DNA of 55,728 nt, the filler included, from Bilabrum cf. latius (Eukaryota): assembly GCA_965178125.1 (NCBI GenBank). It is 2 parts of 2 records of this genome, joined end to end, with 100 filler letters (N's around TTAATTAATTAA, not from the genome) between each part and the next. Parts side by side here need not be neighbours in the genome. Positions count along the whole stretch, not along the records: positions 27,937 to 55,728 come from CBCXTV010000024.1; 1 more part is not named here. One strand, 5' to 3'. The notes under the pieces are model-generated. The model was not told the DNA's origin. It did no database searches and saw nothing but the letters and a program-made list of their open reading frames with translations. Numbering within the stretch: the stretch's first letter is position 1; every line of letters begins with the position of its first letter. Shown here piece after piece: positions 27,938 to 37,862 of this stretch. The translations under genes and the position numbers were made by a program.

Positions 27938-29779
27938 CTCAGCGTTGAGGGCGACATTCCTGGCCGCGTTGCTGCCTCCGAAGCGCTCGCCGCGGGTGTC
28001 ATCAATTTGGAACCCCCGTCAGAGGAAGTACTTTTGCCGGTGCAGCTTCTGCGGAGTAGTCAAGGTTACCGTGGGGTTCTGCCCATCGAGGATTCTGCGC
28101 CCGATGCGAGGGGGCGACCGCAGATGCTCATGCTTCCCGATTTCGTGCCCCCCGTGAAGAGGCGGCGTCTTCGGCAGAAGTGCGACCCTGCTGAGGGCGA
28201 TGCAGCACCGAGTCTTGCGGCTCATCTCGGACCTCCGCCCGCGGCTCGTGCCGCGGCCGGAGCGTCTGGGCCGCAGCGCTCGACTGGAAGGCCTTCGACT
28301 CGTCCGAGTGATAGTGTCATCTATCGTCTCCTGCGGGTTTTCCCTGACGATTTCAAGTTGGCGTTTCCGGCGTCGGTGTCACACCAGCGGAAGCGGTGCC
28401 TCATCAGGGAGGCGCTTCGCAATGTACCCGGTGACCGCATGTGCATCTTGAAAGACTGGGCTGCGGGGGCGGAGGACACTCCTTGCCAGCTTCGTTTCGA
28501 GGAGCTCTTCCCAGAGCTTGCGCGGCAGCGGGACGAAGTTGTGAGGAATCCGGGATCGCATTCAGTGCCCGTGGGCGAGATTGTGCCTGCGTCCGACAAG
28601 AACACGAGGCGGGGAAGGGCCGTGATGCTTACCTTTCACGGTCGCTGGGGTGTCGAAAAGGAGCCTGTGCGCGACATCATGTCGGCATCCGTGGCAAGGG
28701 GCGTCCTGAGGCGATTGGTTCTCGCGTCTCCGTTCTATGTGGAGCTTTGGGCCACCTTCAAGGCATGGGCGCAGGACATCGCGCGGCGGATGATGTGGCC
28801 TCAGCTGTCCATGAAAATGGAGCTCTCCCTGCACCGCAAGCACGCCGCAAACTTGGTGCACTTCCACGTATGCATGACGGATTCCGAGAAGTCGCATCGT
28901 TGTCGCGTGGCGGAGGATTTCATGTGGGCCGGCAGCAGGCCGAATGTCGTGTACGGCTCCGGGCGGTCAGCGAAAGCGCAGGAACGTGGCGCGTCGGAGT
29001 TACACTATTATTGTCAAGCTCCCAAAGTCGGTGCGCTGCTTTGCGCCACGAACTACCGAGCCGGACGCGATTTCGTCGTCAATGGTAAGTTCGTGCACGC
29101 GTTGTTCGCACGCTTCAAAATGGATCCGGACGTCGCGAGAAGGGAACTCGTGGCGTATCGGTGTCGGGACGCCGAGAACTTAGTGCGCGCCATCGACTTC
29201 CACATACAGAATGCCGCGGAGAGGAGAGAGGTGTGCGCGCAGGCCGCGGTGCACGTAGTGACGAAGCTCCGCCCCTTTAAGGTGGTGCCCGAAGTCGAGA
29301 AGTGGCGCGAGAGCTATCGTCAGGAGTGGTTCGCGCACATGCGCTTCAAGTTCCTTGTCTTGGTGGGGGACTCCCGGTTCGGGAAGACAGTGTACGCGCG
29401 GAATCTCTTCGGGAGCGAAAGGACTCTTGTTGTGAACTGTCAGGGCAGTGTGGAACCTCCGCTCCGTGGCTTCGATCGAAGTCGGCATGTGGCCATTGTG
29501 TTCGACGAGGCAAATGCCCTGTGGGTCGTCAACAACAAACAGGTCTTTCAGGCTGGCCTTGACCCCTCCCTGCTCGGCCAGAGCAAGACGAACAGCCTCG
29601 CATACTCTGTGTGGCTCCACGGTATCGCCCTGATCATCTGCACGAATTCGTGGGGCTCTGACGTGACGGAGTCGGTGGACCGCGAGTGGCTTGACAACAA
29701 CTGTACGAAAGTGGAGGTGAAAGATCGGCTCTACTTCGACGAGGACTTGTTGTCTCTCACGGATGTGCAGAAGAGCTGA
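27938..29779 (+). CDS. rep: CRESS-DNA-virus-like Rep: HUH endonuclease + superfamily 3 helicase (possibly 5'-partial)
   Basis: Motif I 'VMLTF', motif II 'VHFHV', motif III 'YYCQAPK', Walker A 'LVLVGDSRFGKTVYAR' (compare geminiviral GDSRTGKTxWAR), Walker B 'IVFDE', motif C 'IICTN', C-terminal 'WLDNNC'. The frame is open back to the contig start; the first ATG is at 28124. Confidence 0.9.
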   Translation, partial: LSVEGDIPGRVAASEALAAGVINLEPPSEEVLLPVQLLRSSQGYRGVLPIEDSAPDARGRPQMLMLPDFVPPVKRRRLRQKCDPAEGDAAPSLAAHLGPPPAARAAAGASGPQRSTGRPSTRPSDSVIYRLLRVFPDDFKLAFPASVSHQRKRCLIREALRNVPGDRMCILKDWAAGAEDTPCQLRFEELFPELARQRDEVVRNPGSHSVPVGEIVPASDKNTRRGRAVMLTFHGRWGVEKEPVRDIMSASVARGVLRRLVLASPFYVELWATFKAWAQDIARRMMWPQLSMKMELSLHRKHAANLVHFHVCMTDSEKSHRCRVAEDFMWAGSRPNVVYGSGRSAKAQERGASELHYYCQAPKVGALLCATNYRAGRDFVVNGKFVHALFARFKMDPDVARRELVAYRCRDAENLVRAIDFHIQNAAERREVCAQAAVHVVTKLRPFKVVPEVEKWRESYRQEWFAHMRFKFLVLVGDSRFGKTVYARNLFGSERTLVVNCQGSVEPPLRGFDRSRHVAIVFDEANALWVVNNKQVFQAGLDPSLLGQSKTNSLAYSVWLHGIALIICTNSWGSDVTESVDREWLDNNCTKVEVKDRLYFDEDLLSLTDVQKS

Positions 29780-30024
29780 CGCCGGCCGCTGAGGTTTTCA
29801 GTCCGGTTCACACGAGCGCCGGAGCCGCAGCGGCAGCCGCTTCGGTGCTCCTGAAGGTCTAATGTCCTCAATGCGTTTCGTGTGCAAAAAGGATGTGGTC
29901 TCTACATGGGGGCATTCCGCAAGTTTCATGTGGTCCGTCGCGTTCGTCCGGGGGAGTGCTTGCCTAGTATTGGGAGCTTGCCTGACACACACACACGTGG
30001 CACCCAGCCTGATGGGTTGCAAGT

Positions 30025-30876
30025 GTGTGTGTGTCTCCGCAGTGCCGCGGTTGGGACCCGGCGGGTCGTTTGCTTTTACGTCGCCGCGTCGCGCGCCGAC
30101 GAGACATTTCTTGGTCTCAGAAGCCTCTGCTTCCGGTAGTCGCGCCGTGTACGCTCGCGGGCCGAAGGTGGGTGCGTTGCTTGATGGCCTACGTCGGTAT
30201 CGCCGATGCACCGTATGTGGCCGTGGTTGCCGCGTCGACCTCCGAGCACGCCCCGGAGGGCGAGGTGGAGATGATGCTTGCGCCTCTTGCCGGAGATGTC
30301 GGTTTCAAGCGGCCTCGCGTGTTTCCTCCCGGTTCGCGACTTCTTCCTAAGTCGCCGGCCCATCCGGCGGTGCTCATAACAGCGCTCGGCAGTGAGGCAC
30401 CCCAGGACACACAGTGCGTCGTTTGGTCGGACTCTAAGGCTTTCGACCTCGCGGAGTTTGTATGCTCTTCCTGCGGCTGCAATCGTGTCATGGCGGACCT
30501 GAATCATCGTATGCGTGATCGTCTCGTACGTCGCGTGCAGCGCACGCTTTATGCCGATGATTCTCCGTGCGGCAGGGGTGCGATTTCTTGTCGTGCTTGT
30601 CGCGAGAAGGCGCGCGACGCGGCGCCGAAGACGTCGATTATGAACGCGGCGAACAAGAAGAAGATCTCGGGAACACTTCGCATGCAGTTGGATCTCATTG
30701 TAGAGACCGGGGAGCGGAAGGGGCAGCGTTGTACTGCGGAGAAAATTCTGACATTGGGAACGATGAAGCAGCACAGGGTTTTCGAGAGGGATCTTTACGA
30801 TGAGGCATGGCGCGGGCTTGTTCGTCTGTCTGGACGCGAGGCTTGGAGCGATGACGATTCTTGGTCTCCGCGTTGA
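30025..30876 (+). CDS. Hypothetical protein with two CxxC motifs (zinc-finger-like)
   Basis: 283-aa ORF co-oriented with rep, containing 'CSSCGCNR...CRAC'. The true start is probably a downstream ATG (MAYVG or MMLAP). Confidence 0.55.
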   Translation: MCVSPQCRGWDPAGRLLLRRRVARRRDISWSQKPLLPVVAPCTLAGRRWVRCLMAYVGIADAPYVAVVAASTSEHAPEGEVEMMLAPLAGDVGFKRPRVFPPGSRLLPKSPAHPAVLITALGSEAPQDTQCVVWSDSKAFDLAEFVCSSCGCNRVMADLNHRMRDRLVRRVQRTLYADDSPCGRGAISCRACREKARDAAPKTSIMNAANKKKISGTLRMQLDLIVETGERKGQRCTAEKILTLGTMKQHRVFERDLYDEAWRGLVRLSGREAWSDDDSWSPR

Positions 30877-36843: not shown

Positions 36844-36857
36844 CCTCGACCACGACC

Positions 36858-37862
36858 ATGTCAGGGGCGAACGCGACTTCGTCAACCTCGAGCACGACCA
36901 TCCCAGCGGCGAACGCGGCTTCCTCGATGGGATCCCTGACCCCGACGAAGCTTCCCCGACCTCGGCCACGTGAACCTGCAGGCGCATTCTTGCCCGATGT
37001 GCCCGCGCAGGTGGCGGCCTGCACGGCGTGGGCGCCACCGTTTCGTCGACCAGACAGCTCAGCCACTCCGGCGACGCGCGAGGCGGCAACGTCCACGTGC
37101 ATCAATCCGTGGACCGCTCTCTCCTGGTATCCGACACCACCGCAGCCGACGGACCCCCCTTCCGACAGGCCTCGCGAGGTACCGAACCCGAGCTCCCGGC
37201 AGCAGCGCAGGCGTCATGCTTGGGGCGGCACGTGGGTGTTCGACGACGCCATTACGCTCAGCGATTGCGGGTCGAGGGTGCAGATCGACGCGCCGCAGTC
37301 GAAGCTCTTGGCGATGGTCGTGCCCCGGAAGTCGGGCCAGTGGATTCCTCGTAGGCTGCGCTCGCGTACGATCTGGTATTTGGCTGGGGAGCAGTCGGCC
37401 GTGATCACCAACCTCAAGTGCCAGGCCTGCAGTCGGGTCAAGCAGGCGGACAGCTTCAACCCGAAGAGCTTGCGTCGGGCTCAGTACTCGTTGCTGCATT
37501 CCCTGTGGCCCGGCTACATACGACGTACCGAGCGGTCTATTTGGTGCACGCAGTGTGCGGTGGAGGACCAGTTGATGCAGGGCAACTTTCCGGACGGCTA
37601 CTGTTTCCGGATCCGCGCCACACTCGAAATTTGCCATCAAGATCGCGTCGCGGCCAGGCTGTTTGCAGTGCACGACAGTAACGCTCTCTTCGAGCAGATC
37701 CCGCTGAGCTCCCATGCGGCCATGGACGTGGCGGAGCAGTTGCGTCGATACTGGCAGGATGCCGTGTCCTCAGACGGCCAGAGCAACATCTTCCACAGCG
37801 ACCACGTTTCGACAGACGACGACTCTGAGTTCGCACCGGGCGGACCGGAGAGCGTGCCGTGA
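36858..37862 (+). CDS. Hypothetical protein with Ser/Thr/Pro-rich N-terminus and CxxC...CxxC zinc finger
   Basis: ATG lies 15 bp after the transposase stop. Contains 'LKCQACSRVKQADSFNPKSL...WCTQC'. Sibling fragments in the mosaic conserve the frame. Confidence 0.65.
   Translation: MSGANATSSTSSTTIPAANAASSMGSLTPTKLPRPRPREPAGAFLPDVPAQVAACTAWAPPFRRPDSSATPATREAATSTCINPWTALSWYPTPPQPTDPPSDRPREVPNPSSRQQRRRHAWGGTWVFDDAITLSDCGSRVQIDAPQSKLLAMVVPRKSGQWIPRRLRSRTIWYLAGEQSAVITNLKCQACSRVKQADSFNPKSLRRAQYSLLHSLWPGYIRRTERSIWCTQCAVEDQLMQGNFPDGYCFRIRATLEICHQDRVAARLFAVHDSNALFEQIPLSSHAAMDVAEQLRRYWQDAVSSDGQSNIFHSDHVSTDDDSEFAPGGPESVP

Follow-up and report, generated by a model that had tools for sequence, protein, structure and literature searches.

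We analysed a 55,728-nucleotide stretch of DNA (hereafter the window) from the Bilabrum cf. latius assembly GCA_965178125.1, in which positions 27938-37862 had been proposed to be a compact element combining a Rep-helicase, similar to those found in viruses whose DNA is circular, Rep-encoding and single-stranded (CRESS viruses), with a pogo-like DDE transposase and accessory genes. The Rep is a genuine, very divergent replication initiator of CRESS type, composed of an HUH (Y1) endonuclease and a superfamily 3 (SF3) helicase, and the gene of a pogo-type transposase lies 5.4 kb downstream of it on the same strand; judging from folds, motifs and conservation, both enzymes look functional. The best single reading, which we favour tentatively, is that they are modules of one integrated mobile element, since the pair appears to co-occur in one other lineage and the transposase has no private ends. 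The host is probably a protist with a GC-rich genome. The window is an artificial joint of two contigs (contig A, 1-27836, and contig B, 27938-55728, the latter of 27,791 bp and 60% G+C), and the two genes, both in contig B, comprise the following features.

27938..29779, plus strand: Rep open reading frame (ORF), 613 aa from the contig edge, 5'-open, with N-terminal extension, HUH endonuclease, helical linker and SF3 helicase
28604..29083, plus strand: HUH (Y1) endonuclease domain, with E, HFH, Y and K invariant in 67/67 aligned relatives
29267..29740, plus strand: SF3/AAA+ helicase domain, in which GDSRFGKT is Walker A, IVFDE is Walker B and ICTN is motif C
35239..36843, plus strand: pogo-type DDE_1 transposase, 534 aa, intact, DD35D, with the three D at 35902, 36277 and 36385

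The divergent Rep and the pogo-type transposase

The Rep frame, which ends with a TGA at 29777-29779, contains the endonuclease motifs LTFHGRWG (28628-28651), HFH (within 28853-28873) and HYYCQAPK (within 29000-29032), followed by the helicase motifs GDSRFGKT (within 29360-29392), IVFDE (within 29492-29512) and ICTN (within 29633-29653). In an alignment of 67 members of the Rep family, residues E108, H121, H123, Y171, K176, E337 and N383 are invariant, while the Walker A residues G295 and K296 and the Walker B residue D336 are kept in at least 90% of the sequences; the HUH residues are encoded at 28820-28822 (E), 28859-28867 (HFH), 29009-29011 (Y) and 29024-29026 (K). Motif III has the form HYYxQxPK, and a second tyrosine adjacent to the catalytic one is conserved in the seven closest relatives only. 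From the sequence, we read the Rep as being of the single-tyrosine (Y1) type.

An AlphaFold model of the full Rep, based on the 67-member alignment, had a mean predicted local distance difference test (pLDDT) score of 92.4. When this model was compared with the PDB using Foldseek, 46 matches were obtained at E<=0.001, headed by Rep68 of adeno-associated virus 2 (AAV2; E 4e-8, about 490 aligned columns) and followed by Vientovirus Rep, the E1 protein of a papillomavirus (BPV) and B19 NS1. In BFVD, which contains predicted structures of viral proteins, the best match had an E of 8e-15 over about 400-450 aligned columns, and 23 of the top 50 rows carried names, corresponding to 22 CRESS-type Reps and one parvovirus NS1. 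The N-terminal domain folded alone (pLDDT 96.6) retrieved HUH Rep nuclease domains in 13 of the 16 top VIA rows, and matched the Vientovirus Rep endonuclease (Z 8.3, rmsd 3.1, 105/113 residues), M-Rep of faba bean necrotic yellows virus (FBNYV, Z 7.6) and Rep of tomato yellow leaf curl virus (TYLCV, Z 7.5); these Z values are middling, so that the argument for the HUH fold is carried by the consistent family of the matches. The C-terminal domain (model residues 257-414) matched the SV40 large T antigen (Z 10.8), the Rep ATPase of porcine circovirus 2 (PCV2; Z 10.3, rmsd 2.7, 121/142 residues) and AAV Rep40 (Z 8.7-8.9), but generic AAA+ chains score alike, and therefore the SF3 assignment rests on the full-length Rep matches in the PDB and BFVD. 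Language-model features grouped the Rep with Cressdnaviricota Rep clusters (0.96-0.97).

Neither as a single sequence nor as a profile (built from 13 or from 67 sequences) did the Rep yield a meaningful match in Pfam, PHROGs or the PDB sequences. The window protein matches no Pfam family at E<=0.1, including Viral_Rep, Gemini_AL1, RNA_helicase and Parvo_NS1, and a weak match to Gemini_AL1_M (E 1.2e-3) was found in two of the 67 relatives. In a protein collection clustered at 90% there were 12 matches to the Rep, the best with 52% identity, and among 50%-identity representatives the family amounts to 1355 clusters at E<=1e-3, 893 at E<=1e-10 and 210 at E<=1e-30, mostly from short environmental contigs. 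In IMG/VR, 44 pattern matches included no confirmed relative, and the GTDB genome contigs yielded a single 1859-bp contig and nothing further. Regardless of its linkage to the transposase, the Rep thus defines a large family that is invisible to Pfam and PDB sequence searches, and surveys of ssDNA-virus-like elements in protist or environmental data probably undercount this group.

The original prediction of an intact HUH plus SF3 Rep is borne out by motifs and folds as far as the two domains are concerned, but not as to intactness, given that the 5' end of the gene is cut by the contig edge. Contig B begins with position 27938, which had been taken as the start of the element and falls within the Rep ORF, so that no left boundary is visible and both the apparent left end and its abutment on telomere repeats are artefacts of concatenation. 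The relatives have Reps of about 700 aa in total, made up of a core of about 430 aa plus a long N-terminal extension, and two of them (P0001 and P0002) have roughly 70-130 N-terminal residues more than the window Rep; contigs from two public read sets extend 213 and 1159 nt upstream of 27938. The Rep, as far as it is visible, is therefore intact in its catalytic domains.

The transposase matches Pfam DDE_1 (PF03184) with an E of 1.8e-11 and 44.4 bits, against a cut-off of 22, and the last two residues of its triad D222/D347/D383 are separated by 35 residues. Its N-terminus resembles HTH_Tnp_Tc5, a CENP-B/Tc5-type helix-turn-helix, below threshold (E 0.091; 13.2 bits, with the cut-off at 22.2). 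Five clusters of relatives were found, with 99, 83, 55, 50 and 53% identity; in four other lineages the protein aligns from start to stop at 49-83% identity, and the catalytic D/D/D is invariant in 5/5 lineages. Domain match, triad spacing and full-length conservation together uphold the claim of an intact DD35D transposase. No second copy is present in the window, and 35 pattern matches in IMG/VR included no confirmed relative.

Terminal inverted repeats (TIRs) bracketing the transposase gene were also searched for, and none was convincing: the best one, a perfect inverted pair of 15 nt at 34000/37827, lacks TA flanks, and no TA-flanked 12-nt pair (<=2 mismatches) was found between 33050-35240 and 36840-39500. 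The general and the directed searches thus agree with the prediction that the gene has no TIRs of its own, and the combination of own TIRs with a TA target site duplication (TSD), expected of an independent nested insertion, was not observed.

Linkage of the two genes and their neighbourhood

The case for a shared element comes mainly from two database proteins, P0002 (a Rep of 52% identity, the closest one from another lineage) and P0159 (a transposase of 50%), each of which forms a one-member ENA cluster found on a single contig 14,535 bp long. From the equal size and the same source they appear to share one contig, and with both clusters having a single member such a coincidence would be unlikely for unlinked genes. 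As an internal control for this equal-size logic, the own-lineage relatives of the transposase and of ORF3, which lies between the two enzymes, are both on contigs of 25,927 and 17,177 bp. The divergences of Rep and transposase are similar, at about 50%. The proposal that the two would be found in synteny elsewhere is therefore upheld once, on the apparent shared contig, and fails at a locus with a Rep of 31% identity, which has different neighbours.

Several observations weigh against a shared element. The linkage rests on one contig, whose sharing is read from size and source, and the Rep family with its 1355 clusters (50% identity) is set against only five clusters found for the transposase subfamily. 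Five metagenome Rep loci of 1.3-6.8 kb were available, and relatives of the transposase or of any other window ORF were present in 0/5; these loci are too short to inform on linkage, and only L002, the one with the 31% identical Rep, extends more than about 1 kb past the Rep, with neighbours that are unrelated. A near-identical Rep (234-746 aa) is absent from the protein collection, as opposed to three near-identical transposase entries, and no homologs of ORF3 were found in other lineages. Neither element ends, nor a TSD, nor a second full copy was found in the visible sequence, the left side of which is cut by the contig start. Among the hairpins of contig B there is none with a loop of the TAxTAC type, as in a CRESS-like nonanucleotide origin, the region upstream of the Rep, which is the usual site, being off the contig.

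Read data also count on this side. Contigs of four runs (X1, X6, X11 and X12) were compared with 27938-41400, and the joints listed in them include no circular joint of the 10-kb unit, the kind of junction that had been suggested as a check. Bin coverage of this region was 30/30 for X1 and X6, 27/30 for X11 and 25/30 for X12. In the unique parts, the X1 depth is 173 for the 5' part of the Rep, 159 for the ORF2 region and 157 for the transposase gene, and to the right it is 160 (38.3-38.8 kb) and 126 (40.3-41.0 kb), level with the unit; as the depth equals that of the neighbours, there is no sign of amplification or mobility, and the unit appears to be a single resident copy in the genome. Among the indels listed for the four read sets there is none in the Rep or transposase ORF. 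Sampled words of 27938-37937 are present at 0.84-0.90 in ten runs with six organism labels from six studies, none of the runs listed with these words being an RNA run, and runs at 0.00 were not counted as absence. The six labels could stand for strains of a single species, or the source of the sequence could be an associate common to several hosts.

Upstream of the transposase gene, two extra bases (GA) after 34702 were seen in 4/4 of the compared runs and an extra C after 33838 in X1 and X6, which are small indel differences or assembly errors in a non-coding or weakly supported part. The database transposase copy P0165 (621 aa) has an N-terminal extension that arises via such a frame change.

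The remaining features of the proposed element are listed below, with G+C at third codon positions given as GC3.

30013..30876, plus strand: ORF2, 287 aa stop to stop, GC3 0.63, overlapped by a 329-aa antisense ORF
31712..33043, plus strand: ORF3, 443 aa, Cys-rich C-terminal part, GC3 0.71
33244..34225, plus strand: tandem duplication, two units of about 460-510 bp, 84% identity
34073..34669, plus strand: ORF4, 198 aa stop to stop, no homologs, weak codon-position GC contrast
36798..37862, plus strand: ORF6, 354 aa (334 aa from ATG 36858), GC3 0.78

In 27.5-38.5 kb there are 26 stop-to-stop ORFs of at least 150 aa, 13 per strand, and at 60% G+C with so many long ORFs on each strand, ORF length and co-orientation carry little weight. 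Of the six co-oriented uninterrupted ORFs originally described, the Rep and the transposase stand and ORF3 and ORF6 look coding, but the set was a selection out of 26, and ORF2 and ORF4 are unsupported. For ORF2, no homologs were found and the codon-position GC contrast is weak; for ORF4, by our own estimate, a frame of such length is expected to arise by chance at 60% GC.

ORF3 is probably coding but lineage-specific. Its relatives are one 98% homolog and one partial sequence, both from the lineage of the window, and Ka/Ks against an 88% paralog at 43301-44295 was 0.53 in frame versus 1.43 and 0.84 off frame, a difference which is weak and not decisive. ORF6 looks coding as well, with no relatives found in other lineages; its N-terminal half is of low complexity and it contains a sub-threshold Stc1-like Cys motif. 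No match under E 0.05 came from the PDB sequence search with ORF2, ORF3 or ORF6, the Cys-rich part of ORF3 resembling the RPA12 zinc ribbon at no better than E 0.089, and no paralogy was found among ORF2, ORF3, ORF4 and ORF6. The spacing of 15 bp reported between the transposase and the next ORF is correct if ORF6 starts at ATG 36858 (15 nt), but with ATG 36798 there is instead a 46-nt overlap with the transposase stop.

It is possible, if doubtful, that the two genes are independent residents and neighbours by chance, namely an endogenised or transposon-borne Rep of a large protist-associated family and an unrelated pogo-derived transposase, in a recombination-prone and repeat-rich region. 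This would fit the lack of shared ends, the lack of conservation of ORF3 across lineages, a Rep family much wider than the transposase subfamily and the distant Rep locus with other neighbours, as well as the shuffled state of the surrounding DNA (the mosaic, tandem duplications and palindrome described below) and the 13 long ORFs per strand, which make co-orientation weak evidence. Chance would, however, have to place the 52% Rep and the 50% transposase, both in one-member clusters from the same source, on contigs of the same 14,535 bp, to leave a transposase gene without a TIR or TSD of its own, and to keep both genes intact and conserved to a similar degree.

The mosaic and other features of the window

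To the right of the proposed element lies a region made of pieces of it, followed by a long ORF.

About 39.1-46.0 kb (41488..46031 as a feature), plus strand: mosaic of short same-strand pieces of the Rep, of ORF3 and its upstream region, of ORF6 and of a 921-aa ORF
49999..52764, plus strand: the 921-aa ORF, strong coding signal, GC3 0.775, no Pfam match even at E 10

The Rep pieces in the mosaic derive from 28504-28537, 28813-28958, 29110-29154 and 29618-29669, and those of ORF6 from 37177-37449, 37544-37584 and 37623-37662. All non-self matches of the proposed element (27/27) are +/+, in agreement with the single polarity noted originally; the statement that the mosaic samples both gene blocks does not hold for the transposase, of which no piece was found. 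The mosaic also draws on the 921-aa ORF, at 50.4-52.3 kb and so beyond the proposed element; together these two features indicate shuffling of neighbouring sequences over about 25 kb and are no demonstration of co-movement of Rep and transposase. The mosaic junctions 28958>37177, 31763>33044, 33015>37544, 37662>32265 and 32299>29618 are among the read joints of X1 and X6, and their presence in the contigs of both runs indicates that this is real DNA and not an assembly error.

Within the mosaic there is a tandem duplication with a 956-bp unit (41537-42555 / 42493-43510), each copy of which contains three times a 72-bp unit (41626-41841 and 42582-42797) that is about 89% identical to a single stretch, 52215-52347, inside the 921-aa ORF. 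An in-frame chimera of 548 aa (43337-44983) joins the C-terminus of ORF3 (92%), a 17-aa segment from ORF6 and the part of the 921-aa ORF that spans residues 137-341 (97.6%). Contigs of X1, X6 and X12 contain a further joint, absent from the window, 32262>29168, which goes back 3095 and has low depth (11.2 versus about 157 in X1); it may come from a small circle, from a tandem duplication or from another copy of the mosaic.

Further repeats are found beyond the mosaic. A palindrome at 46027-46223 (97-nt arms, 99% complementary, 3-nt spacer) consists of a fragment in inverted duplication whose relative lies in the 921-aa ORF at 50683-50821, and nested tandem repeats at 46304-47213, with a 398-bp unit present 2.3 times and containing 54-bp units present 4.6 times, lie in a stretch without coding periodicity. 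Such periodicity is missing over 38.1-41.1 and 45.3-50.0 kb. A 144-bp direct repeat (90%; 38119-38262 / 54472-54611) brackets 16 kb with the mosaic and the 921-aa ORF, and 39760-39908 matches 54048-54197 at 82%.

In this setting the Rep and the transposase might be part of the cargo of a larger unit, an island of virus-like, episomal or hypervariable nature and 28 kb or more in size, to which the mosaic and a glycosyltransferase-like gene would also belong; we consider this unlikely. In line with such an island are the combination, in the mosaic, of sequences from the Rep, ORF3, ORF6 and the 921-aa ORF, the recurrence of 38119-38262 at 54472-54611 and the joint presence of the 27938-37937 words in the ten runs; the 921-aa ORF has its nearest language-model neighbours among clusters of GT11/GT25 glycosyltransferases, most of them from Nucleocytoviricota (0.89-0.90, a lead only). 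Against it, no capsid, packaging ATPase or polymerase was recognised among the contig B ORFs tested with Pfam or PHROGs, the stretches without coding periodicity are long, and IMG/VR holds no relative of either enzyme. As to a polinton-like gene set, ORF2, ORF3, ORF4 and ORF6 had no Pfam or PHROG match, and the 921-aa, 548-aa and 274-aa ORFs had no Pfam match. The claim that no capsid is recognisable among the accessory ORFs is thus sustained by the Pfam, PHROGs and PDB sequence searches.

More improbable still is that the Rep, the transposase or both are domesticated host genes with a cellular function outside any mobile element, which would agree with the single-copy depth, the lack of TIRs or TSD, the full-length conservation of the transposase with invariant catalytic residues at 49-83% across lineages and the two ORFs free of indels among those listed for the four read sets, but not with a Rep family of 1355 clusters, mostly on short environmental contigs, that looks mobile or viral and unlike a host orthologue group, nor with a locus amid shuffled repeats, while one would still have to account for a conserved linkage between two unrelated 'domesticated' enzymes.

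If the Rep and the transposase are modules of one integrated mobile element, as we tentatively prefer, this element would carry lineage-specific Cys-rich ORFs between and after both enzymes, with no recognisable capsid, and its true ends would lie outside the visible sequence, upstream of 27938 and possibly beyond 37862. The DDE enzyme would cut and paste the unit into chromosomes, the Rep would nick an origin and drive rolling-circle copying of an excised or nicked form, and the mosaic might be a by-product of template switching or abortive repair at the locus; this division of labour, in which the Rep amplifies and the DDE enzyme integrates, is offered purely as conjecture. A fuller version is correspondingly more doubtful, although conceivable: a protist element lineage that keeps an intact CRESS-type Rep and a pogo DD35D transposase under selection, has no capsid, is copied by rolling circle and inserted by cut and paste, has a Rep family missed by profile libraries, and leaves the mosaic as debris of Rep template switching.

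Two further features concern replication signals and the contig joint.

29984..30035, plus strand: (CA)n/(TG)n-based hairpin about 200 nt past the Rep stop, with 23-nt arms around a 6-nt spacer and a z of -2.9 for the DNA fold
27837..27936, no strand: artificial contig joiner, 44 N + TTAATTAATTAA + 44 N

About 10 nt 5' of the hairpin, and outside its loop, is TAGTATTGG (within 29965-30035), which agrees at 7/9 positions with the circovirus-type nonanucleotide, probably by chance. In the five related metagenome Rep loci, terminal redundancy was found in 0/5.

In the joiner, TTAATTAATTAA is a spacer with stops in six frames, of the type used for joining contigs, and the telomere-repeat contig A need not be physically adjacent to contig B. 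Most of contig A is made up of (CCCTAAA)n arrays, three in number, which span 17.7 kb (1331-19018), 1.6 kb (21676-23294) and 3.2 kb (24639-27836). Between them are GC-rich tandem repeats at 19.2-20.7 and 23.4-24.0 kb, whose units measure about 446 and 163 bp, and a segmental duplication (90% match between 21566-23294 and 24518-26291); the arrays are interstitial or stacked telomere-type arrays and not a simple chromosome end. The ORFs at its left edge (188-1222 and 870-1331) include a stretch that may resemble retroelement RNase H/integrase motifs, with no Pfam support. An Rfam scan of the window gave no match, and a search for the dinoflagellate spliced-leader relic gave 0 matches.

Comparison with known elements

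In architecture and fold the Rep is like those of CRESS-DNA viruses (Cressdnaviricota) and parvovirus NS1/Rep proteins, with a Y1 HUH domain, a helical linker, an SF3 domain and the catalytic and ATPase motifs. The genomes of CRESS-DNA viruses are small and circular, with an ori stem-loop bearing a nonanucleotide and with a capsid gene, whereas here the Rep lies within a contig of at least 27.8 kb in which no capsid gene was recognised.

Among eukaryotic elements, Helitrons likewise encode an HUH Rep fused to a helicase. A published account describes the RepHel of Helitrons as a two-tyrosine Rep with an SF1B helicase, and Replitrons as elements of eukaryotes whose Y1 Rep has a weak relationship to CRESS Reps and no fused helicase (PMC10288648). 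A Helitron is ruled out here by the SF3-like helicase and the one catalytic tyrosine invariant in 67/67 sequences, and a Replitron by the fused, conserved P-loop helicase domain. In the structural comparison of the Rep N-terminal domain, the Helitron transposase chain 7lcc had a Z of 5.0 and rank 34. The transposase shares the DDE_1 domain and the DD35D spacing with pogo/Tigger elements of the Tc1/mariner superfamily, but here TIRs, TA duplication and extra copies were not detected and the gene lies between other ORFs instead of ends of its own.

Teratorn, a fusion of piggyBac and a herpesvirus (PMC5601938, PMC10175614), and polinton-like viruses with circovirus-Rep-like nickases (preprint 10.64898/2026.10.13.758929) share the concept of combining viral replication with DDE integration, although in that preprint DDE genes accompany the protein-primed PolB and not the Rep-like nickases. 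Such systems are large dsDNA viruses with morphogenetic genes, while no capsid or packaging gene was recognised here.

The closest parallel is the geminivirus-like transposon of Tuber melanosporum, described as having a Rep-like ORF alongside transposase ORFs within a single genomic unit, TIRs of 37 bp and 42 copies of >95% identity, with ORFs that are interrupted or truncated (Liu et al. 2011, PMC3198968). A composite of Rep and transposase is of a kind already known, and the assertion that the present gene set fits none of the established classes was overstated. A keyword search of the literature retrieved no published description of the pair formed by a Rep (HUH plus SF3) and a pogo transposase. 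Compared with the truffle element, the ORFs here are open (the Rep being 5'-cut by the contig edge only), the copy number looks like one, no TIRs were seen and by sequence the Rep shows no detectable likeness to geminivirus Reps. Should the shared-element reading be true, the element could serve as a model of the way in which CRESS-like replicons turn into residents of genomes and viruses give rise to new transposon classes, with each enzyme testable on defined ends. If the Rep and the transposase travel together, they would represent an intact fusion of an ssDNA-type replicon with a cut-and-paste transposon, for which the truffle precedent is decayed.

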